Source: an archaeon (GTDB lineage: Archaea > Iainarchaeota > Iainarchaeia > Iainarchaeales > CSSED10-239). Taken from it: a stretch of 32,000 bases of DNA. The translations under genes and the position numbers were made by a program. The DNA lies in the NCBI GenBank assembly GCA_035390665.1, contig DAOOUC010000001.1, positions 60,001-92,000 on the forward strand, written 5' to 3'. Positions 1,021 to 14,657 of the stretch are shown here, one piece after another. Below the pieces are notes generated by a model, which ran no database searches, was not told the DNA's origin, and worked only from the letters and a program-made list of their open reading frames with translations. Numbering within the stretch: position 1 is the stretch's first letter; every line of letters starts with the position of its first letter.

Positions 1021-3471
1021 TCAATCATCTTTTTGATTCAAGCTAGATTTTATTATTTTACCAGGGGTTTTAAGAAAAGAGTCATTTTCTAAATCCCTTT
1101 GAATTACCTGTGCTTTTTCTATTATTTCTTTGTTGATCCCTGCAAGCCTTGCAACCTGTAAACCGTAACTTTTGTTTATTCCGCCCTTTTGAAGCTTATG
1201 ATAGAAATGAAGAGAATCTCCTTCTTCTTTTGCAGTTACATGGAAATTATTTATTCCTGCATATATCTCTTCCATTTTGTTTAATATGTGATAGTGTGTT
1301 GCAACAAGAGATTTACATTGTGTTTTGTTATTTAGATAATCTACTATTGACCAGGCTATACTTATACCATCAAAAGTACTTGTTCCTCTTCCAACTTCAT
1401 CTAAAATTACAAGGCTGTTTTTTGTTGCATTATTAATAATATAAGCAACTTCTGACATCTCTACTAAAAACGTACTTTGCCCTCTTGAAATATCGTCTGA
1501 TGCTCCGATTCGTGTAAATATGCCGTCTATTTTTCCGATTTTGGCAAAAGACGCCGGTATAAAAGAACCAGTGTGTCCAAGAATTAGTGCAATACACACA
1601 CTTCGCATATAACTACTTTTGCCAGCCATATTTGGACCAGTAATAATCATTGTTCTATTATTAGAATCTAATACACAATCATTTGGTATAAATGAAGTTT
1701 GTTGCTCAATTAAAGGGTGCCTTAAATCTTTTAAGATTAATTCGTCAGTATGTGTGTGTTCTGGAGAGATATAATCGTATTGATTACCAATAAATGCAAA
1801 AGAAAAATATTCGTCTAAAGAGCCAAGTAATGTTGCTGTCTTTTTAATCTCTTCTTGATGAATTATTATTTGCTTACAAACGTCTGTAAAAATATTAAAT
1901 TCTAATTCTTCTCTTCTTTCTTTTGCGTGTAACACCATAGATTCTTTTTCACTTAATTCTTTGGTGGTGTATCTTTCACAATTAACTAAAGTTTGCTTTC
2001 TGTCAAGATAGTCAGGAATATTTGTTGTTTGAGCTTTTGGTATTTCTATGTAATATCCAAAAATTTTATTAAATTTTAACTTTATAGATTTAATATTTGT
2101 CTTTTGTTTTAATTCTGCTTCATATTCTAATAGCCAGGAATTTGTTGTTTTATTAATATTAACTAAATCAAAAAGCTCTTTAGAAAAACTTGGTTCAATA
2201 AAGCCCCCTTCTCTTACACTTATTGGCGGCTCATTAATAATTGCAGAATCAATTAATTCTACAACTGCATTTAAATTAGATAGGTTGTTTCTTATTTCTT
2301 GTAATTTAATTGATTCGGTTTCTTTTAATATTACTCTTAGGTTTGGAAGAACTTCCAGACTTTGTTTTAAAGCAATTAAATCTCTTGGATTTGCATTTCC
2401 AAATCCTATTTTACTTATGATCTTGTCTAAATCACCAATATAAGATAATTGCTGCTTTAATTCCTCAATAATAAACACATTTTCTTTAATTGCTTTTACT
2501 GCTTCATTAATTTTTATTATTTCTTCTTTGTTTGTTAATGGGTGCAATAAATCAAAATACAATTTTCTATAGCCCATTGCCGTTCTTGTTTCGTTAATTA
2601 AATCAAATAAACTATTTTTTTGTTGTTTATCTCTTATATTAGAAACAAGTTCTAAATTATTTACGGTCTTATTATCTAATCTTATAAATTTGTTAAGATT
2701 GTATTGTTTTATTTCAGAAATATATTTAAGATCAGAAAATTGCGTATCTTTAAGATATTTTAATGCATTATAAGAAGAAAGAATTATTTCATTTTTGTCT
2801 ACTAATCCAAAAGCAGCTAAAGATTTAGTATTGAAATGCTCTAATAATTTATTTGCGGATTGTGCAACATCTTGATTATCGGTGTAATTTATAATTACGT
2901 TTGGAATTGTTCTTTTAATATTTTCAATTATACTAAAATCATTTAAAATATTTTTAGATAAAATAATTTCTTTTGGTTTTATTAAAAGAAGCTCATTTAA
3001 TATTTCGTTAAAATTATCAAAAGAATTAATTTTGAATTCTCCTGTTGTTATATCTACTAGAGAAAAACCAAATAATTCTTTTAATTTAACAATAGAACAA
3101 AGATAATTATTTTCATAACTGTCTGTAAATAGTGTGCTTGGTGTGATTATTCTTGTTACTGCTCTTTTTACTAATCCTTTTGCAAGCTTTGGATCTTCTA
3201 TTTGTTCGCAGATAATTACTTTCTTCCCGTATTTTATTAATTTTGTAATATATGGATCAATAGAATGATATGGAATTCCTGCAAGCGGTGCTTCTGTTTC
3301 TCCTTTGCCTCTTTTTGTTAAAGTAATGTTTAATAATTGAGAAGCAATTTTAGCATCATCGTAGAACATCTCATAGAAATCCCCTGCTCTAAATAATAAT
3401 ATTCCATCTGGGTATTCTTTTTTAGTTTCCAGATATTGTTTCATCATTGGGGTTAGATTTTGTTTTTCCAT
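1021..3471 (-). CDS. mutS: DNA mismatch repair protein MutS (bacterial MutS1 type)
   Basis: Tracked ORF 1021..3525. It contains GDFYEMF (the Phe-X-Glu mismatch-recognition motif), Walker A GPNMAGKS and Walker B LVILDEVGRGTS. The start is placed at Met19 (MEKQNLTPMMKQY, ATG complement of 3469..3471) because the first 18 codons of the ORF overlap tRNA-Phe. Confidence 0.92.
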   Translation of the reverse strand: MEKQNLTPMMKQYLETKKEYPDGILLFRAGDFYEMFYDDAKIASQLLNITLTKRGKGETEAPLAGIPYHSIDPYITKLIKYGKKVIICEQIEDPKLAKGLVKRAVTRIITPSTLFTDSYENNYLCSIVKLKELFGFSLVDITTGEFKINSFDNFNEILNELLLIKPKEIILSKNILNDFSIIENIKRTIPNVIINYTDNQDVAQSANKLLEHFNTKSLAAFGLVDKNEIILSSYNALKYLKDTQFSDLKYISEIKQYNLNKFIRLDNKTVNNLELVSNIRDKQQKNSLFDLINETRTAMGYRKLYFDLLHPLTNKEEIIKINEAVKAIKENVFIIEELKQQLSYIGDLDKIISKIGFGNANPRDLIALKQSLEVLPNLRVILKETESIKLQEIRNNLSNLNAVVELIDSAIINEPPISVREGGFIEPSFSKELFDLVNINKTTNSWLLEYEAELKQKTNIKSIKLKFNKIFGYYIEIPKAQTTNIPDYLDRKQTLVNCERYTTKELSEKESMVLHAKERREELEFNIFTDVCKQIIIHQEEIKKTATLLGSLDEYFSFAFIGNQYDYISPEHTHTDELILKDLRHPLIEQQTSFIPNDCVLDSNNRTMIITGPNMAGKSSYMRSVCIALILGHTGSFIPASFAKIGKIDGIFTRIGASDDISRGQSTFLVEMSEVAYIINNATKNSLVILDEVGRGTSTFDGISIAWSIVDYLNNKTQCKSLVATHYHILNKMEEIYAGINNFHVTAKEEGDSLHFYHKLQKGGINKSYGLQVARLAGINKEIIEKAQVIQRDLENDSFLKTPGKIIKSSLNQKDD

Positions 3472-3500
3472 CTGCTTTTCTCTTTGTTTAAAAAAAGTTA

Positions 3501-3574
3501 TGAGATCGGTGGGATTTGGACCCACGACACATAGGTCTTCAGCCTATTGCTCTCCCAGGCTGAGCTACGATCTC
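3501..3574 (-). tRNA. tRNA-Phe (anticodon GAA)
   Basis: The reverse complement folds as a cloverleaf. Acceptor stem GAGAUCG/CGAUCUC, D-arm AGCUCAGCCUGGGAGAGC, anticodon stem AUAGG/CCUAU with loop CUGAAGA, T-arm GUGGGUCCAAAUCCCAC. No CCA is encoded. Confidence 0.9.
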
Positions 3575-3586
3575 ATTAGAGAAATT

Positions 3587-3660
3587 TGAGCCCGATGGGA
3601 TTTGAACCCACGACACCAAGATTAAGAGTCTTGTGCTCTACCAAGCTGAGCTACGAGCCC
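3587..3660 (-). tRNA. tRNA-Lys (anticodon CUU)
   Basis: Reverse complement begins GGGCUCGUAGCUCAGCUUGGUAGAGCA. Anticodon stem CAAGA/UCUUG with loop CUCUUAA, T-loop GGGUUCAAAUCCC. The acceptor stem has two G-U pairs. Confidence 0.88.
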
Positions 3661-3674
3661 AAACTACATTATTC

Positions 3675-3748
3675 TGAACCTGGAGGGATTTGAACCCTCG
3701 ACACCGGGATTAAAAGTCCCGTGCTCTACCAAGCTGAGCTACAGATCC
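3675..3748 (-). tRNA. tRNA-Lys (anticodon UUU)
   Basis: Reverse complement begins GGAUCUGUAGCUCAGCUUGGUAGAGCA. Anticodon stem CGGGA/UCCCG with loop CUUUUAA, T-arm GAGGGUUCAAAUCCCUC. Confidence 0.88.
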
Positions 3749-3810
3749 ATAATATTTTCTTTGGTCGAATAACAATAGCTTATTTAATTAAATAGGATAA
3801 TATAATATTT

Positions 3811-4353
3811 ATGACTCAAAATGTTTATAAACTTACTATCTTAAGATTAGATCACCGTCCTTTTAGAGATAAACGAATAACCACACATTGTGCTTTAGTT
3901 TCTAGGGCTTTTGGGGCTAAAAAATTTTATTTTTCTGGGGTTGAAGATAATACTATATTAGAAGTTTTAGAAAAAATTAAAGCAAAATGGGGCGGGGATT
4001 TTGAAATGGAATTTATTGAAGAACCTTTAGAATTTGTTAAAAGTTTTAAAGAAAACAACGGAGTTGTTATACATTTGACAATGTATGGTAAAAATATTGT
4101 TGATGAAATAGAATCTATTAAAAAAATCACAAATAAAGAAATATTATTAATTGTCGGTGGTTCTAAGGTTCCAAAAGAATACTATGAACTTGCAGATTAT
4201 AATGTGGCTATTGGAAATCAACCACACAGTGAAGTTTCTGCTCTTGGTATAATCTTATATATGCTTGATAATAATTGTCTTATAAAAGAATTCAAAGATA
4301 CTAAGATTAAAATAATTCCAAGTAACACTTATAAAAAAGTAATTAATTTATAA
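3811..4353 (+). CDS. tRNA (cytidine56-2'-O)-methyltransferase aTrm56 (SPOUT family)
   Basis: The 180-aa ORF carries LRLDHRPFRDKRITTHCALVSRAFGA, VIHLTMYG and ELADYNVAIGNQPHSEVSAL. As I recall the archaeal aTrm56 family, these match almost motif for motif. Confidence 0.8.
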   Translation: MTQNVYKLTILRLDHRPFRDKRITTHCALVSRAFGAKKFYFSGVEDNTILEVLEKIKAKWGGDFEMEFIEEPLEFVKSFKENNGVVIHLTMYGKNIVDEIESIKKITNKEILLIVGGSKVPKEYYELADYNVAIGNQPHSEVSALGIILYMLDNNCLIKEFKDTKIKIIPSNTYKKVINL

Positions 4354-7135: not shown

Positions 7136-7501
7136 TTATCTTCTTCCTGCTGTTGAATATTTACTTTTATATCCAATATATTTCTTTCTAATCTTTGAAT
7201 CGTAGCTGTTGTCTGGTTCATCTGAAACAGGTTCTCTAACTACTTCCCTTTCAGCTACTGGAACATTACCTGAGTTAATTAAGATAATATCATCAACTGA
7301 TATAACCTTCTTATAAGGTATACTATGTTCTGTCATTATTTTTTTAGCTTCTTTCTTTGAACTTACTTTTAATGGTTGAGTTGTAATAGTTTCAATTATA
7401 CCTGATTCTAAGTTAACAACTAAATCATAAACCTTGCCTCTATAAGTTGCATTTGTTTCGTATAAGTCCATACCGAAAAGTTTTGATATTCTCATTGTCA
7501 T
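7136..7501 (-). CDS. PRC-barrel domain protein
   Basis: The 121-aa ORF begins ISKLFGMDLYETNATYRGKVYDLVVNLESGIIETI, typical of archaeal PRC-barrel proteins. A strong GGAGG Shine-Dalgarno motif (complement of CCTCC at 7513..7517) precedes the ATG. Confidence 0.72.
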   Translation of the reverse strand: MTMRISKLFGMDLYETNATYRGKVYDLVVNLESGIIETITTQPLKVSSKKEAKKIMTEHSIPYKKVISVDDIILINSGNVPVAEREVVREPVSDEPDNSYDSKIRKKYIGYKSKYSTAGRR

Positions 7502-7666: not shown

Positions 7667-8521
7667 CTATTTATTAATATTATCTAAAGGATTTACAATT
7701 TCTTTAAGTTTGTTGGTATTAACCTTTGTATATATTTGAGTAGTATTAAGATTTGCGTGTCCCAAAAGTTGTTGAATATATCTAATATTAACGTCATTTT
7801 CTAAAAGACTTGTTGCAAATGAATGCCTAAGCTTATGTGGGCTAATCTTTTTTGTAATTCCTGCTTTACTTGCAGAAATTTTTAAAAATTTTTGAATAGT
7901 ATCAACTGATAATGCTTTACCACTATCAGAGCAAAATAAATATTCTGATTTAATTTTTTTTCCTCTTTCTTCTAAATATTTTTTATAATCTTCTACCCAT
8001 TTTTTAGATAATATAATTATTCTATCTTTATTTCCTTTTCCACCAATAACATTTCCTGTGTGTTCTTCAAAATTAAGATCAGTAATCTTCATATTTACAC
8101 ATTCCGATACTCTAACACCAGTAGAGAACATGAATTCTATTATTAGTTTATTTCTATAATTAGCAGTATTTTCAATTAAATCAACAATTTCTTTAGGTGT
8201 TAAAACAATAGGAATTTTCTTAGCTTTCTTTGGTAATTTAATATCTATAATTAAATTTAATTTTAAAAATTCTTTATAAAAATGTTTAATAGCAGAAAGT
8301 ACAAGATTCATTGTAGCGGAACCTGATTTTTTCTCTTGCTTTAAATAAGATAGAAATGAAACAACATCATCAGAATTAACTTCTTTTAAATCTTTTTTAA
8401 CATGTTCTGAAAATATATTTAAATAAATTAAGTAAGTTTCAATTGTTTTTTGACTATAACCTACAATATTTAGTTCATTTTCGAATTTTTTAAGAAGTTC
8501 TTTGTTTTTTTCTTCTATCAT
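7667..8521 (-). CDS. xerA: Tyrosine recombinase, XerA/XerC/XerD family
   Basis: The 284-aa ORF has an N-terminal SAM-like core-binding domain (GYSQKTIETYLIYLNIF). The catalytic domain carries TGVRVSE (Arg I) and HKLRHSFATSLLENDVNIRYIQQLLGHANLNTTQIYTKV (His-x-x-Arg, His, Tyr nucleophile). Confidence 0.85.
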   Translation of the reverse strand: MIEEKNKELLKKFENELNIVGYSQKTIETYLIYLNIFSEHVKKDLKEVNSDDVVSFLSYLKQEKKSGSATMNLVLSAIKHFYKEFLKLNLIIDIKLPKKAKKIPIVLTPKEIVDLIENTANYRNKLIIEFMFSTGVRVSECVNMKITDLNFEEHTGNVIGGKGNKDRIIILSKKWVEDYKKYLEERGKKIKSEYLFCSDSGKALSVDTIQKFLKISASKAGITKKISPHKLRHSFATSLLENDVNIRYIQQLLGHANLNTTQIYTKVNTNKLKEIVNPLDNINK

Positions 8522-8765
8522 ACTAATAAAAATTATAAGAAATTATTAAAAAAGGAGCACATTATGCCGAATTCAAATTTATGTATAAATTTACAATGTA
8601 AAATATATCTGATGATTTGTTTCACAATCTAAACTAATAGTTAAAAAAATATCCTTTAGATTCAGATTTTATCTAACTTTAGAGACAAAACCGATTGCCT
8701 TTATAAACATAATGACCTTTAGTAGTATTACTTTTTTTAAAATAAAATTATCAAAGGTTTTATCA

Positions 8766-11765
8766 ATGGCAACAAAACAAATTATTAACAGAAAAGAAGA
8801 AAAAATTGATTATAATATTTACAAAATAAAACTTGCAATACTTAAAGCCCTTGATGCAATTGATAATCCAGATATTGATTTAGCAGATTATCTTACAAAA
8901 AAAATAGATATTAATTTAACAGAAAATTATTTTGATAAAAATAGATGTCCAACAATTGATGAAATTCAAGACACTGTAGAAGATATATTAATTAAAGAAG
9001 GATTGACTAAATTAGTAAAAGCATATGTAATTTATAGAAAACAACACGATGATTTTAGAAACATTTCAAAACTCATAGACAGTACAAATGCAGTTGAGAG
9101 TTACATAAATATTTCAGATTGGCAAGTTAAGGAAAACAGTAATATGGATTATTCATTACAAGGATTAAATAATTATTTATCAACAAAAGTAATATCTGAT
9201 TATTGGATAAAAAAAATATATCCTTCAGAAATTAGAGAAGCACACGAGAAAAGGCAACTTCATTTACACGATCTAAATACATTAGGTTCATATTGTGTTG
9301 GTTGGGATCTTCAATCTGTTCTACAAACTGGTTTTAGAGGATCTCCAGGTAAAGTTGTGGCATCTCCACCAAAACATTTAGATACAGCATTAGGACAAAT
9401 AGTTAATTTTATTTTTACACTTCAAGGAGAATCAGCAGGTGCTCAAGCCTTTAGTAATTTTGATACCCTTCTTGCCCCATTTATAAGATACGATAATCTT
9501 GATTACAAGCAGGTAAGAGCATCCTTAGAGAAATTTATTTATAATATGAATGTGCCTACAAGAGTTGGTTTTCAATGTATGTCCCAAGATACAGAAATTC
9601 TTACAGAAAATGGGTGGCTTACATATAATGATTTAAAAGTAGGAGATATAATAAAAACATTTAACACTAATACAGGTAAAATAGAAGATCTTCCTATAAA
9701 AAAATTATTTGCAAGGGAGTACTCTGGCAAAATGTACAATTTAAAAAACAGAATACAAGATCAGTTAATTTCTCCTAAACACAGAGTTGTAAGAAAAATA
9801 TTCAATACTAAAAATAAATTTATATTAGAAGAAATTGAAGTTGTTAAAAAATATAAATCAGATATTGTTATTCCAATTGCGGGAGATACAAACTACAGAG
9901 GAATAAATTGGAGTGATGAAAAAATTAAAATGGTTGCGTGGATTATTGCAGAAGGAAGTTCCGAGCAGCCTTATCATAAAAATAAAAACTCAAGAAACAT
10001 AAAAATTTATCAATCTGAAATAAAAAACAATAAAGAATATAAAGAAATAAAGTCTTTATTAGAATATTTTAAATTTAAATATTCTGAAACCAAACACACA
10101 GGACTTGGCGCACCAGTTAATGCAATCAAATTAAATGCTGAATCTTCAAGAACCATACACTCTTGGTTTGATGATGAAAGCAATATCAAATTTATTCCCA
10201 TAGATTTATTTAAAGCCAATAAAAAACAAGCAAGATTATTTTTAGAAACCTATAACAAAGGAGATGGAACAGAGGAATTTAAAATTTCTACAACTTCTGT
10301 TGATATACTTTATGGTTTGCAACACATGTGTGTGTTAGCAGGTTATGGTTTTACTACGCTTTTTAGAAAACCAACCATTGGTACAAAGCCAATTTTTGTT
10401 TTAAGAATTATACAACACACAGACACAACAATAACTCAAATTAAAGAAATTGATTATAAGGGAATTATATGGTGTCCGAACACAGATAATGAAACTGTTA
10501 TTGCAAAAAGAAATGGCAAGGTTTTTATTACAGGTAACACCCCATTTTCAAATATCACTCTTGATTTAACTGTACCATCTACATTTAAAGATACACCAGT
10601 TATAATAGCAGGGAAACCACAAGATAAAACATATGGCGAATTCCAAAAAGAGATGGATATTTTTAATATGGCTTTATTAGATATAATGTACGATGGAGAT
10701 GCATCTGGAAATATGTTCTCTTTTCCGATACCTACAATTAATGTAACAAAAGAATTTGATTGGTCAACGCCACTAGCTGATAAATTAATTGATTTAACAA
10801 TAAAATACGGCACTCCATATTTTGCAAACTTTGTAAATTCTGATATGAAACCAGAAGATGCAAGAAGTATGTGTTGTAGATTAAGATTAGATAATAGAGA
10901 ACTACAAAAAAGAGGAGGAGGATTATTTGGTTCTAATCCTTTAACTGGTTCTATTGGAGTTGTAACAATAAATCTTGCTCAATTAGGCTATCTATCAAAA
11001 TCAGAAGAAGAATATTTTGAAAATTTAGGTCATCTAATGGATCTTGCTAAAAAATCTTTAGATATAAAAAGAAAAATTGTAGAAAAATATACTGATGATG
11101 GGTTATATCCTTATTCTAAATTTAATTTAAAAAGTATAAAAGACAGATTTGGTACTTATTGGAAGAATCATTTCTCAACTATAGGTTTACTTGGTTTAAA
11201 TGAATCCGCAATAAATTTTATGGGAGAAGGAATATATACAGAAAAAGGGCTAGCTTTTGCAAATAAAGTTATGGACTTTATGAGAGAGAAAATACAAAAG
11301 TATCAAGAAGAGACTGGAGCCTTATATAATCTTGAAGCAACACCAGGAGAAGGAACAACCTATAGATTTGCAAGTTATGATAAAAAGAAATATCCTTCTA
11401 TAGTTGTTGCAAATGAAGAAAATTACAAGAATAATGGAGCACAACCATATTATACAAATTCATCTATGCTTCCAGTAACTTATACAAATGATATATTTGA
11501 AGTTTTAGAATTACAAGACGAATTGCAATGTAAATATACAGGTGGAACAGTAATACACATATTTATTGGAGAAAAAAAACCATCAAGAGAAGCAATTAAA
11601 TCATTAATACAAAAAATAACAACCAATTATAAATTACCTTACTTTACATTTACGCCTACATTTTCGGTGTGTCCAAAACACGGGTATATTTTTGGAGAAC
11701 ATGAATATTGTCCATTATGTGATGAAGAAATAGGTTATAAGGAAAATAAAAATACGGGGGAATAA
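8766..11765 (+). CDS. nrdD: Anaerobic (class III) ribonucleoside-triphosphate reductase NrdD, intein-containing and lacking the glycyl-radical C-terminus
   Basis: ATP-cone at the N-terminus (IINRKEEKIDYNIYKI), the thiyl-Cys loop ARSMCCRLRLD, GGGLFGSNPLTGSIGVVTINL, and a C-terminal Zn ribbon CPKHG..CPLC. The start is placed at ATG 8766 (MATKQ). The tracked ORF begins at 8712, but that extension is hydrophobic and unlike NrdD. The ORF stops at TAA 11763..11765, before the RVxGY glycyl-radical motif. Confidence 0.9.
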   Translation: MATKQIINRKEEKIDYNIYKIKLAILKALDAIDNPDIDLADYLTKKIDINLTENYFDKNRCPTIDEIQDTVEDILIKEGLTKLVKAYVIYRKQHDDFRNISKLIDSTNAVESYINISDWQVKENSNMDYSLQGLNNYLSTKVISDYWIKKIYPSEIREAHEKRQLHLHDLNTLGSYCVGWDLQSVLQTGFRGSPGKVVASPPKHLDTALGQIVNFIFTLQGESAGAQAFSNFDTLLAPFIRYDNLDYKQVRASLEKFIYNMNVPTRVGFQCMSQDTEILTENGWLTYNDLKVGDIIKTFNTNTGKIEDLPIKKLFAREYSGKMYNLKNRIQDQLISPKHRVVRKIFNTKNKFILEEIEVVKKYKSDIVIPIAGDTNYRGINWSDEKIKMVAWIIAEGSSEQPYHKNKNSRNIKIYQSEIKNNKEYKEIKSLLEYFKFKYSETKHTGLGAPVNAIKLNAESSRTIHSWFDDESNIKFIPIDLFKANKKQARLFLETYNKGDGTEEFKISTTSVDILYGLQHMCVLAGYGFTTLFRKPTIGTKPIFVLRIIQHTDTTITQIKEIDYKGIIWCPNTDNETVIAKRNGKVFITGNTPFSNITLDLTVPSTFKDTPVIIAGKPQDKTYGEFQKEMDIFNMALLDIMYDGDASGNMFSFPIPTINVTKEFDWSTPLADKLIDLTIKYGTPYFANFVNSDMKPEDARSMCCRLRLDNRELQKRGGGLFGSNPLTGSIGVVTINLAQLGYLSKSEEEYFENLGHLMDLAKKSLDIKRKIVEKYTDDGLYPYSKFNLKSIKDRFGTYWKNHFSTIGLLGLNESAINFMGEGIYTEKGLAFANKVMDFMREKIQKYQEETGALYNLEATPGEGTTYRFASYDKKKYPSIVVANEENYKNNGAQPYYTNSSMLPVTYTNDIFEVLELQDELQCKYTGGTVIHIFIGEKKPSREAIKSLIQKITTNYKLPYFTFTPTFSVCPKHGYIFGEHEYCPLCDEEIGYKENKNTGE
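9576..10538 (+). mobile_element. Intein (321 aa) with a LAGLIDADG homing-endonuclease domain, inserted in nrdD
   Basis: The extein sequence ...PTRVGFQ is interrupted by CMSQDTEILTENGWLTY (block A, Cys1). It resumes after ...NGKVFITGN with TPFSNITLD (+1 Thr). Two LAGLIDADG-like motifs lie inside (KMVAWIIAEGSS and RLFLETYNKGDGT). Both boundary codons are in frame with nrdD. Confidence 0.85.
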
Positions 11766-11768
11766 AAG

Positions 11769-11915
11769 ATGAATAATGAAATAGAAGCAAAAAGACAGAA
11801 ATGTGAAATTTATTCTAGAGTTGTAGGATATGTTAGAAGAATAGATGCCTGGAATTATGGTAAACAAGCAGAATTTCACGATAGAAAATTATTTTCTGTT
11901 CCAGAAAACAAATAA
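11769..11915 (+). CDS. 48-aa ORF encoding the NrdD glycyl-radical C-terminal domain, detached from nrdD by an in-frame TAA
   Basis: Not in the ORF track (too short). Hand translation: MNNEIEAKRQKCEIYSRVVGYVRRIDAWNYGKQAEFHDRKLFSVPENK. RVVGY followed by WNxGKxxEFxDR is the class III RNR glycyl-radical signature. It is in the same frame as nrdD, two codons after its stop. A G-run (11756..11760) lies 8 nt upstream of the ATG. Confidence 0.75.
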   Translation: MNNEIEAKRQKCEIYSRVVGYVRRIDAWNYGKQAEFHDRKLFSVPENK

Positions 11916-11928
11916 TGGTAATTAAAAT

Positions 11929-12594
11929 ATGCCTTTAAGAATAGGAGCAATTGAAAAGTTTAGTACAATAGATTATCCAAATAAAATTGCTTGTGTTATT
12001 TTTTTAAAGGGGTGTAATTTCAATTGTGGTTTTTGTTATAATAAGCAATTGGTATTACCTGAGCTTTTCGATTCCAAACCAGACGTTCTTGAAAGTGAAA
12101 TACACTATTTCTTGGACAAACGAAAAGGTCTTCTCGATGCTGTTGTTATTACAGGCGGAGAACCCACAATTTTTGGAAAAGATTTAATTGATTTTATAAA
12201 AAAAATTAAAGAAAAAAGTTACCTTGTAAAACTAGATACAAATGGGTCTAATCCCGAAATATTAAAAGAAATATTAGACAATAATCTTGTAGATTATGTT
12301 GCTATGGATTTAAAAGATATTTTTGAAAATTATAATAACTATACAAAAGTTCCAAATAAAAATATCAAGACTTCATTTGAGCTATTAAAAAATTCAAAAA
12401 TTCCCCACGAATTTAGAATTACTACGCACCCCGAGCTGACGTTGAATAATTTTAATAAAATAATAGAAACAGCAAAAGGAGAAAAAATATTTGTCCAAGA
12501 TTTCGTAAACACTAATACTATAAAAGAATATAAAGAAAATAAAACTATATATTCAAAACTTTCAAAAGCAAGTAAAGATTATATTTTAAGATAA
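11929..12594 (+). CDS. nrdG: Anaerobic ribonucleotide reductase activating protein (radical SAM)
   Basis: The 221-aa ORF has FSTIDYPNKIACVIFLKGCNFNCGFCYN (CxxxCxxC radical-SAM cluster) and the GGEPT motif. It sits immediately downstream of nrdD. Confidence 0.85.
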   Translation: MPLRIGAIEKFSTIDYPNKIACVIFLKGCNFNCGFCYNKQLVLPELFDSKPDVLESEIHYFLDKRKGLLDAVVITGGEPTIFGKDLIDFIKKIKEKSYLVKLDTNGSNPEILKEILDNNLVDYVAMDLKDIFENYNNYTKVPNKNIKTSFELLKNSKIPHEFRITTHPELTLNNFNKIIETAKGEKIFVQDFVNTNTIKEYKENKTIYSKLSKASKDYILR

Positions 12595-12608: not shown

Positions 12609-14657
12609 ATGGTTTTTGTAAATACAATTAAAAATAAAAATGGAGAAACAGAAGAGTTTTCAAAAGAAAGACTAGCAATAATGTTGTTTGAAAACATGTG
12701 TAATCTTGGAGAACCTAATCTTAATCTAGCAGAAAAGTTAGCATTTTTAATCTATGATAAAGTAAATGCCAAATTTTCAAAGGAAATTTTACAAGAAAAA
12801 TTAGACGAGATAATTAAAGAAACCCTTCATCAAGAAAATCAAGGAGAGCTCCTACAAGCATATATTTTTAAAAAAAACAAACCAGAAGCCGCTCAAGCAG
12901 ATAGTGAATTAAAAGAAATTATTCTAAAACAAATAATAAATATTGACGAATCCGATAATTTATCAACTAAATTAGTAAATATTCATTCTCAAATAAATAA
13001 ATTACAAAATAATCAACACGAAAAGATAAATAAAAAGATTTTTGAATATATCAGAGATGGAGTATTTTATCCTAGTTCAACTTTTTTAAGAGAAATAAGT
13101 TTGAATCAACAATTGTCTTCAAGTTATTCATTTAAAATCCAAGATTCAATTGAAAGCATTTTTGATACATTATCTCAATCAAGTATTGTTCAAAAATATG
13201 GTTCTTCAATTTCAATAGATTTATCAAGAATTAGATCAGAAAAAGAAAAAGTAAAATCTATAAACAGAAATGCCTGTGGACCAATAAGAGTAATTGATCT
13301 TTTTGTTTCTGCAAAATCAATGATTGGTTATAATACAAACAGTTCAAATAATCTTTATTATATTTCTATAGAACACCCGGATATTGTCTCTTTCTTAAAT
13401 CACTCAGCTACGACTAAAGAAAATTATGCAGTGTTAATTCCAGATAGATTCATGAAATCCTTAACAGAAAATTCAGATTATTTTATTGAGATCAATTCTG
13501 AAAATAAAATAAAAATTTCTCCTTTAGCATTAATTGATTTAATTTCTTCTAAAATAATTACTGGAGAAAATATAAATTTAATATTCATAGATTCAATAAA
13601 TAAAAAGAATCCATTTTTAGATAACTATAAACCATTTACAATATCTTCTATAGGATTACAACCTGTTTTTGAAGATAATTCTTTTGCTAGTGGCGTAATC
13701 GATGTTTCTAAGTTTGTAAATATTCTAGGAAATACTAAAACCTTTGATTGGGCAAAATTAAAAGTAGTTATTTGGGACACTTTAGAGTTTCTAGATAATT
13801 CAATTGATTTAACTAAAACAATAAATGAGAAATACACACAAGAACTAAAAGAAACAAGACAAGTCTATATTTCAATTACAGGTTTTTATTCTTTATTATC
13901 TAAACTAGGCATTGCTTACGAAAGTGATGATGCAATTTATTTTGCTGATGCATTGTCTGATTATATTAATTATTATTCAAAACTTAAATCAACAGAACTT
14001 GCAAAAGAAAGAGGGCCATTTTTTAAATTTATAAAAAGTAAATACGAATTGCCTAATTTTTCTTTTGATAAGGCCCCAATTCAAAAAACATTATTTTCTA
14101 ATGATTTAAATCAAACAAAAAAACTACTTAAAAACATGCCCACAATTGATTGGACAGAACTAAGAAACAACATTAAGAAATATGGTTTAAGAAATTCAAC
14201 AACATTTTCAATAATATTTTCTGATTTTTATTCTGTTGCTAATGAATGTAGTAATGGAATAGATGCAATTATAAGTTATAAATCTACAATTTGGGTAAAT
14301 GGCCACAAGTTTGAAAAAATAAATAAAGAACTTAATACACAAGTTTCTGATTTAAAATCTAATTGGACACAAAATGAGATTGAATCGTCAGTTCCAGACA
14401 TCATAAAATCTAAGTTACCACTTGCAAGATCAATATCCCCGCAATTCTTTATAAGATTACAATCTGTTTTTGAAAAAAACACAGATGGTTGTACTAACCT
14501 AAAGGTTTATTTTACAGATTGCACAAGTATTCAAGACATTAAAAATATTATTCTAGAGACACACAGAATAGGAAACACTATTTTTTGTGCAGAAAAAATA
14601 AATGGTCATCAAAAAGACTTTAACACAGAAAATAAAAAAGGATTAATGAGTTTATAA
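12609..14657 (+). CDS. ATP-cone protein homologous to class II (NrdJ-type) ribonucleotide reductase, with degenerate catalytic motifs
   Basis: The N-terminal ATP-cone begins VNTIKNKNGETEEFSKERL. The core, FYPSSTFLREISLNQQLSSSYSFKIQDSIESIFDTL..KYGSSISIDLSRIRS..ACGPIRVIDLF..ISIEHPDIVSFLNH, aligns by eye to the RNR alpha signature xPxSPTLxNAG..QLSxCF..DSIExI..GGGxGxxxSxLRP..SGPxxFM..HPDIxxF. Key residues are changed (see findings). Confidence 0.6.
   Translation: MVFVNTIKNKNGETEEFSKERLAIMLFENMCNLGEPNLNLAEKLAFLIYDKVNAKFSKEILQEKLDEIIKETLHQENQGELLQAYIFKKNKPEAAQADSELKEIILKQIINIDESDNLSTKLVNIHSQINKLQNNQHEKINKKIFEYIRDGVFYPSSTFLREISLNQQLSSSYSFKIQDSIESIFDTLSQSSIVQKYGSSISIDLSRIRSEKEKVKSINRNACGPIRVIDLFVSAKSMIGYNTNSSNNLYYISIEHPDIVSFLNHSATTKENYAVLIPDRFMKSLTENSDYFIEINSENKIKISPLALIDLISSKIITGENINLIFIDSINKKNPFLDNYKPFTISSIGLQPVFEDNSFASGVIDVSKFVNILGNTKTFDWAKLKVVIWDTLEFLDNSIDLTKTINEKYTQELKETRQVYISITGFYSLLSKLGIAYESDDAIYFADALSDYINYYSKLKSTELAKERGPFFKFIKSKYELPNFSFDKAPIQKTLFSNDLNQTKKLLKNMPTIDWTELRNNIKKYGLRNSTTFSIIFSDFYSVANECSNGIDAIISYKSTIWVNGHKFEKINKELNTQVSDLKSNWTQNEIESSVPDIIKSKLPLARSISPQFFIRLQSVFEKNTDGCTNLKVYFTDCTSIQDIKNIILETHRIGNTIFCAEKINGHQKDFNTENKKGLMSL

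Follow-up and report, generated by a model that had tools for sequence, protein, structure and literature searches.

Can the radical-bearing glycine of an anaerobic (class III) ribonucleotide reductase (RNR) reside on a polypeptide other than the one that forms the catalytic barrel? This question is raised by the nrdD locus in a 32,000-nucleotide stretch of DNA from an archaeon of the Iainarchaeota (contig DAOOUC010000001.1, positions 60,001 to 92,000; hereafter the window). The nrdD open reading frame (ORF), called the body here, stops before the glycyl-radical domain, and a 48-codon ORF immediately downstream, called the mini, carries the radical motif. In NrdD, one of the glycyl-radical enzymes (GREs), a radical S-adenosylmethionine activase makes the glycyl radical on an RVxGY hairpin, which is seated in the barrel beside the finger-loop Cys. 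The textbooks and structural studies of class III RNR known to us all regard the glycyl-radical domain as a covalent part of NrdD that forms its C-terminus. Judged from the sequences, the locus very probably encodes a functional class III RNR as three genes, body, mini, and activase, because the break between domains is clean, the junction is fixed, the mini is under selection and appears to be translated independently, the split form is prevalent, a reverse test starting from radical-less bodies finds minis, and the body is intact.

Position of the break in the NrdD chain

The features of the locus are as follows (SD, Shine-Dalgarno).

8712..11765, + strand: nrdD body ORF, 1017 aa; ATP-cone, NrdD barrel, and Zn ribbon, without glycyl-radical domain
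9576..10538, + strand: intein, aa 289-609, 321 aa; starts CMSQDTEIL..., ends ...VFITGN, followed by T610
11670..11720, + strand: Zn-ribbon-like motif C-P-K-H ... C-P-L-C, the final conserved structural element of the body
11721..11738, + strand: D-E-E-I-G-Y motif, immediately after the last Zn Cys; split-type bodies only
11756-11760, + strand: SD-like G-run GGGGG, within the end of the body ORF, 8 nt 5' of the mini ATG
11763-11765, + strand: body stop TAA, the same in 7 independent contigs
11769..11915, + strand: mini-subunit gene, 48 aa; ATG 11769, TAA 11913-15
11929..12594, + strand: nrdG activase; Radical_SAM and Fer4_12 domains, cluster motif CNFNCGFC (CxxxCxxC type)

The body ORF ends with ...CPKHGYIFGEHEYCPLCDEEIGYKENKNTGE (in a longer rendering, ...SVCPKHGYIFGEHEYCPLCDEEIGYKENKNTGE), followed by the TAA at 11763-65. 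Between this stop and the mini's ATG lies a single codon, AAG at 11766-68, and both ORFs share one frame. The translation of the mini is MNNEIEAKRQKCEIYSRVVGYVRRIDAWNYGKQAEFHDRKLFSVPENK, in which the RVxG[YF] glycyl-radical motif (radical loop S-R-V-V-G-Y; Gly20 codon at 11826-11828) is followed by WNxGK..E..R. An earlier note, made from the DNA letters without database searches, had described an nrdD ORF ending right after its Zn ribbon and, in the same frame, a 48-codon ORF opened by ATG 11769 and carrying the radical motif. The sequence and the Pfam boundary described below confirm this layout, and the motif holds on retranslation.

The Pfam NRDD model (PF13597, 562 positions) is divided between the two ORFs: positions 156-529 match the large ORF (E 2.8e-168) and positions 530-562 match the mini (E 5e-9). 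The NCBIfam NrdD equivalogs are cut at the same place and include no model for the small protein alone; the body scores 954 bits with NF006126, against a cutoff of 548. In Pfam, NRDD is the sole match of the mini, and in NCBIfam the mini matches NrdD models alone; Gly_radical, of the pyruvate formate-lyase (PFL) type, gives no match. The alignment of the body with T. maritima NrdD (4COI) runs as far as residue 610 (CPVCGK, where the Zn site ends), the Zn-ribbon motif of the body falling on the C..GH...CPVC segment, and the mini profile aligns to residues 610-645, including the RIVGY radical loop. The cysteines of the finger-loop SMCCRLRL and the putative Zn ligands C648, H651, C661, and C664 are invariant in the alignment A2. 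In one trait the locus departs from class III RNR, namely, the radical glycine and the barrel are on separate chains, split by the TAA at 11763-65.

Motifs that distinguish the split form lie on both sides of the break. In 101 radical-less bodies, a D-x-E-[IM]-G-Y motif follows the last Zn Cys (D at +1 in 99/101, E at +3 in 97/101, and GY at +5/+6 in 82/101), and a variable tail follows the motif. It is absent from 18 fused homologues, in which the CxxC runs directly into (x)3-9-E-V-Y-S-R-V-V-G-Y. In the minis, the residues leading directly into E-I-Y-S-R-V-V-G-Y include a conserved basic R-x-K and a Cys with >90% conservation. The D-x-E-[IM]-G-Y of the body and the R-x-K-C of the mini may form an interface in trans: acidic residues may pair with basic ones, or the Cys may add a ligand to the C-x2-H...C-x2-C site. 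The body motif may instead be what is left of an old radical loop.

The body ORF contains one intein, a contiguous element of aa 289-609. It matches Hint_2 weakly (E 0.011) and extends from C289 to N609, with a terminal G-N instead of the usual H-N. An 88-90% identical homologue, P0235 (677 aa), aligns to body aa 19-288 and 610-1013 with nothing between them. The intein was gained or lost recently, since this close homologue lacks it; the intein-free P0235 is still split. The true start of nrdD is probably ATG 8766 (M19; MATKQIINRK), because P0235 begins at that Met. The annotated ORF includes 18 codons (8712-8765) of probable excess 5' sequence. A split intein or trans-splicing at the body/mini break was considered and rejected, as neither intein halves nor Hint matches are found there; past the Zn ribbon the body runs on for only 14 residues, and in the mini 11 residues precede the conserved core.

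Fixation, selection, and distribution of the two-gene form

In the public collection, 9 contigs carry a gene for the exact 48-aa mini. Seven contigs, four with the exact mini and three with a 96%-identical variant, were compared with the window; they derive from differing samples and assemblers (Logan, JGI, ENA, and NCBI). The junction gggggaaTAAaagATG is identical in all seven independently assembled contigs, which have 97.3-100% nucleotide identity to the window, with 0-34 substitutions over 1.2-3.1 kb. A sense codon at 11763..11765 was sought in these near-identical contigs, and TAA was found in 7/7. Because the junction is the same in seven independent contigs, the two-ORF arrangement is fixed in the population. 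The ratio of nonsynonymous to synonymous substitution rates (dN/dS) of the mini core is 0.03-0.10 against three relatives (L001, L008, and L009), with dS ranging from 0.6 to saturation. The mini is under strong purifying selection. It is not decaying, because its dN/dS is low and the relatives keep two ORFs with differing spacers, overlaps, and frames.

When related nrdD loci are compared for the stop and restart, two ORFs are kept and the geometry is variable. Within the window's own clade, the junction is a 3-nt in-frame gap in the window, a 44-nt spacer in another frame in L001-L003, a 51-nt spacer with two stops in L008, and an 8-nt overlap in L009. GGGGG or GGTG is located 8-10 nt before the mini ATG in the window, L001, L008, and L009. 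Similar G-rich motifs at the same distance precede many window genes, which bears out the resemblance to SD-like motifs that the earlier note had seen in the G-run at 11756..11760. In lineages that use canonical SD sites, namely, Thermotogae (L065 and L048), Bipolaricaulota (L027), and Thermoplasmatales (L017), an AAGGAGG and a TTG, GTG, or ATG start of the mini lie inside the end of the body ORF. Among 30 adjacent body/mini junctions, 23 are out of frame and 7 in frame, near chance expectation.

The gene order in Halanaerobiales is body-nrdG-mini. In the cultured Halanaerobium saccharolyticum MA284_T2 (L051, NZ_SNWX01000002.1), a 686-aa body (1102..3162), nrdG (3163..3861), and a 52-aa mini (3974..4132) follow one another. 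This cultured anaerobe is the handiest organism for experiments. The same order is also observed in L045, L050, L062, L064, L080, and L170. In Ca. Falkowbacteria RIFOXYC2_FULL_36_12 (L025 4001-4147), the mini is unlinked, with no body within 4 kb; it sits in a cell-division cluster, after mraZ-rsmH and before an ftsL-like gene.

A set of 5.8 billion proteins contains 87 homologues of the mini, all of 37-84 aa, with identity down to 60%. Their source names include 'archaeon', Ca. Ainarchaeum, and Ca. Falkowbacteria, and their database labels are the automatic 'anaerobic ribonucleoside-triphosphate reductase'. The consensus is M-x(5-8)-R-x-K-C-E-I-Y-S-R-V-V-G-Y-x-R-P-V-x-x-W-N-x-G-K-Q-A-E-F-x-D-R-K, and S16, R17, V19, G20, K32, E35, and R39 are invariant in 88 minis. 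A search of 1.84 billion cluster representatives with the mini profile gave 5124 matches, the best 150 of which are all 48-149 aa. Conversely, among the best 120 homologues of the C-terminal extein of the body, 102 end after the Zn ribbon without a radical motif and 18 are fused.

Among the 80 GTDB species representatives matched, 37 are fused, 26 have the body followed by the mini, 6 have the order body-nrdG-mini, 8 have no body in the flank, and 3 are ambiguous; the split form totals 32/80. The archaeal split forms are found in DPANN (Micrarchaeota, Woesearchaeota, Nanobdellota, and unclassified archaeal metagenome-assembled genomes close to the window) and in Thermoplasmatales. The bacterial ones are found in many Patescibacteria (Dojkabacteria, Saccharibacteria, and Falkowbacteria), Bipolaricaulota, Thermotogae, and Halanaerobiales. 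In the reverse test, all three radical-less bodies picked regardless of context (P0306, P0281, and P0353) have a 47-51-aa NRDD-matching gene in the operon. In a neighbour-joining tree of the bodies, split and fused forms are interleaved, with one large, uniformly split clade from the candidate phyla radiation (CPR). This interleaving suggests more than one split or fusion event; the tree carries no support values and is used for interleaving only, not for counting events.

Some sequences depart from the common pattern. L047 (Syntrophomonas palmitatica JCM 14374), L071, and L075 have 112-208-aa ORFs that comprise the barrel end and the radical loop, in frame with an upstream NrdD. These ORFs may be frameshifted genes, pseudogenes, or draft-quality errors, and they were left out of the split count. 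The 67-aa mini P0084, on an 838-nt contig, has a Zn-ribbon-like C..C...CDEC before KCEIYSRVVGY, which may indicate that the chain can also be divided upstream of the Zn ribbon. The minis of Thermotogae and Bipolaricaulota (L065 3935-4132, L048 3896-4132, and L027 3938-4144) have an N-terminal extension, ED..GNL(I/V)LEDG.VIP. The same extension is found in many viral minis (L089-L091, L109-L111, and L127) and is absent from window-type minis, suggesting that the extension-bearing minis are a subfamily exchanged between cells and phages.

A proposed two-polypeptide enzyme and competing explanations

In the proposed enzyme, the spliced body (~680 residues) would provide the ATP-cone, a ten-stranded barrel that bears the finger-loop cysteines, and the Zn ribbon. 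From the mini (48 residues, ~5.7 kDa) would come the beta-hairpin, the tip residue of which, Gly20, is predicted to carry the radical. The mini would be translated separately from ATG 11769 by means of the SD-like G-run, probably coupled to termination at the TAA three bases upstream. NrdG, whose gene adjoins that of the mini in every operon examined, would abstract the hydrogen atom of Gly20 on the free or loosely bound mini. The mini would then dock in trans in the barrel beside the finger-loop Cys, like the tethered C-terminal domain of a fused NrdD. A free peptide may be easier for the activase to reach, with no tethered domain to extract. Oxygen cleaves the backbone of GREs at the radical glycine, and such cleavage would cost a 48-aa peptide here, not an enzyme of ~680 aa.

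The split class III RNR with a separate small peptide was the possibility toward which the earlier note leaned. Fixation, selection, conservation across phyla, and the SD-like site of the mini itself support it, the radical on the mini and its docking being predictions. Three points weigh against it or temper it. The docking of the mini is unsupported by an AlphaFold2 model of an artificial single-chain fusion of the spliced body and the mini (alignment A2, 44 rows): the body has a mean pLDDT of 80.5, and the mini forms the expected helix, hairpin with V-G at the tip, and helix, but at a pLDDT of only 35-51. The ORFs in the window are in frame and one codon apart, and a small amount of read-through fusion may occur. 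Finally, the genome may also have a fused nrdD elsewhere.

The in-frame arrangement is also what favors the idea that read-through or recoding of the stop yields an ordinary fused NrdD, the small ORF not being separately translated; only TAA and AAG lie between the ORFs of the window, and in L056 a TGA is directly followed by an in-frame ATG. However, TAA is the standard stop of the window, terminating 20/28 ORFs, and recoding of TAA was rejected on this ground. The closest relatives, with their 44-51-nt spacers and extra stops or their 8-nt overlap in another frame, do not fit read-through, nor do the conservation of an SD-like site before the mini ATG and the unlinked mini of the Falkowbacteria genome. 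The comparison of loci indicates that read-through cannot be the conserved mechanism, because most junctions (23/30) are not in frame and, in Halanaerobiales, nrdG separates the two genes. Read-through, which the earlier note had listed as an option, is thus not needed, and we regard it as highly improbable. A further option is that the stop stems from faulty sequencing or assembly, or from a nonsense mutation that arose recently in one strain and made nrdD a pseudogene. The earlier note had listed a sequencing error or a pseudogenising mutation as well, and a single in-frame stop in AT-rich (27.5% GC) sequence of metagenome type would be compatible with it. This option has practically no chance of being right: the junction is shared by seven independent contigs despite 8-34 single-nucleotide differences nearby, the downstream ORF has the low dN/dS given above, and archaeal and bacterial phyla alike conserve the split, which a cultured isolate also has.

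Another explanation is that the mini is a true spare part or regulator, resembling GrcA, for a fused NrdD encoded elsewhere, and that the local body is inactive or has another role. Minis without a nearby body do exist, in phages (72/80 best viral loci) and in the Falkowbacteria genome, and Desulfobacterota have larger proteins consisting of a Zn ribbon and a glycyl-radical domain. Such orphans imply that the peptide can act in trans on a partner encoded elsewhere. For the locus in question, however, the body is highly conserved, with every catalytic and Zn residue in place, most of its nearest homologues are radical-less, and body, mini, and nrdG travel together. Moreover, a dead gene of 2 kb is unlikely to be retained in these small genomes. 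The spare-part explanation is therefore considered unlikely, though less so than read-through. From the adjacent body, which has no radical domain of its own, the mini appears to be an obligate subunit and not a spare.

The proposed two-polypeptide enzyme can be compared with known systems. Canonical NrdD/NrdG (T. maritima 4COI/4U3E; phage T4 NrdD 1H79) has the same domains in the same order with an adjacent radical-SAM activase. The chain here differs in being broken between the Zn ribbon and the radical hairpin, and split bodies add the D-x-E-[IM]-G-Y tail. Benzylsuccinate synthase, with its beta and gamma subunits, and 4-hydroxyphenylacetate decarboxylase, with its small subunit, are also GREs that need small extra polypeptides. 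Unlike in the split NrdD, the glycine in these enzymes remains with the large subunit, and the small ones have an accessory role.

The closest likeness in mode of working is to GrcA/YfiD of E. coli and Y06I of phage T4, small free proteins that are essentially a glycyl-radical domain; the mini likewise has its own start and SD-like site. GrcA/YfiD is presumably charged by the parent activase and then completes a radical-less barrel in trans, as proposed for the mini. The earlier note had drawn this likeness; it stands for the mode of working and fails for family membership, since GrcA (IPR011140) has a PFL-type Gly_radical and the mini matches NRDD only. In addition, GrcA rescues an enzyme whose own domain has been cleaved by oxygen, whereas the body here never has one. 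GrcA is ~127 aa, with a disordered N-terminal half (PMC8683613), compared with 48 aa for the mini. As for gene structure, class II NrdJa/NrdJb of Pseudomonas aeruginosa is an RNR catalytic chain divided between two neighbouring genes, the second of which encodes the C-terminal accessory part (PMC9669993). NrdJa/NrdJb belongs to another RNR class, in which NrdJb is a reductant-delivery module (IscU-like and Zn-finger) and the radical comes from adenosylcobalamin; the analogy is limited to gene structure. NrdJa/b is the only split RNR in the RNR reviews and phylogenies examined. No split or truncated NrdD was found in the literature searched, subscription-only papers and RNRdb lying outside it. 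According to a GRE review of June 2026, small spare-part proteins are known for formate-lyases only (PMC13450708), and Andorfer et al. (2021) speculate on spare-part radical proteins for other GREs (PMC8683613).

Orphan radical proteins and surroundings of the locus

Among the best 80 IMG/VR loci, 72 encode a protein of 43-190 aa that has the NrdD radical motif, with neither an NrdD body nor NrdG nearby. The flanks read extend up to 10 kb on each side, with a mean of 13.3 kb per locus (L088-L167 and L180-L256). Terminase, portal, and RusA genes lie beside orphan minis in three unrelated viral contigs. Examples of the viral orphans are as follows.

L103, ~3495-3650
L113, 3429-3713
L090, ~3447-3668

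The archaeal virus ANMV-1 (KP703175; L168 2686-3120; AJP62049.1) encodes a 144-aa 'nrdD' that consists of a Zn ribbon and the radical loop; the ANMV-1 paper merely labels this gene as nrdD. In Desulfobacterota, 130-206-aa proteins with a Zn ribbon and radical loop are likewise observed without a nearby body. Standalone proteins of ~110-200 aa with CxxC...CxxC and the NrdD radical loop, again with no body nearby, are found in Desulfobacterales (L030 3650-4132) and in L020, L031, L079, L087, and L168. PHROG phrog_4132 matches the Zn-ribbon and radical-loop region. Proteins of the Desulfobacterota/ANMV-1 type are candidate true spare parts if those genomes have a fused NrdD. A further 60-aa mini (L006 2452-2634) is located after a DUF2786/DUF7168 gene on a 2.9-kb contig binned as Xanthomonadales (GCA_017998895.1), with no body on the contig, which is probably a prophage or phage fragment.

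The viral and Desulfobacterota orphans look like true trans-acting radical donors, and the viral orphan mini may be the NrdD counterpart of T4 Y06I. The orphans strengthen the view that the NrdD radical loop can work as a separate molecule. It is possible, in our judgment with a little less than an even chance, that a large share of DPANN and Patescibacteria, and some Firmicutes/Thermotogae, have the NrdD radical as a peptide cofactor that can diffuse and be exchanged. NrdG would charge the 5-6-kDa mini, which would load the radical-less barrel, giving the enzyme a built-in repair of oxygen damage, and phage orphans may re-arm or commandeer the host reductase during infection.

For all GREs, mechanistic work faces the question of how the radical domain moves out of the barrel to the activase and back again. 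A natural two-piece enzyme would make this movement testable, as the peptide could be activated, labelled, titrated, and exchanged. If true, the split NrdD would answer the speculation on spare-part radical proteins beyond PFL (PMC8683613). In practice, mini genes of 45-60 aa are missed or labelled fragments, and radical-less bodies could be misread as truncated pseudogenes when the RNR content of CPR/DPANN genomes is scored. The orphan copies in phages suggest a kind of auxiliary gene, serving nucleotide supply, that has gone unrecognised.

In the window, no terminator was found between nrdD, the mini, nrdG, and the class II RNR gene described below, and promoter-like sites are not above chance. 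An Rfam scan of the window gave four tRNAs only, none of them at the body/mini junction. The gene that follows nrdG is given here as context only.

12609..14657, + strand: class II-like RNR, 682 aa; ATP-cone and Ribonuc_red_lgC

It begins 14 nt after nrdG, placing two RNR classes in one apparent operon, and the synteny with the class II-like RNR is kept in loci L001-L003 and L173-L179. Upstream of nrdD, the opposite strand carries an XerC/D-like integrase gene (7667-8521) and a gene at 7136-7501, the counterpart of which in L001-L003 has a PRC domain.

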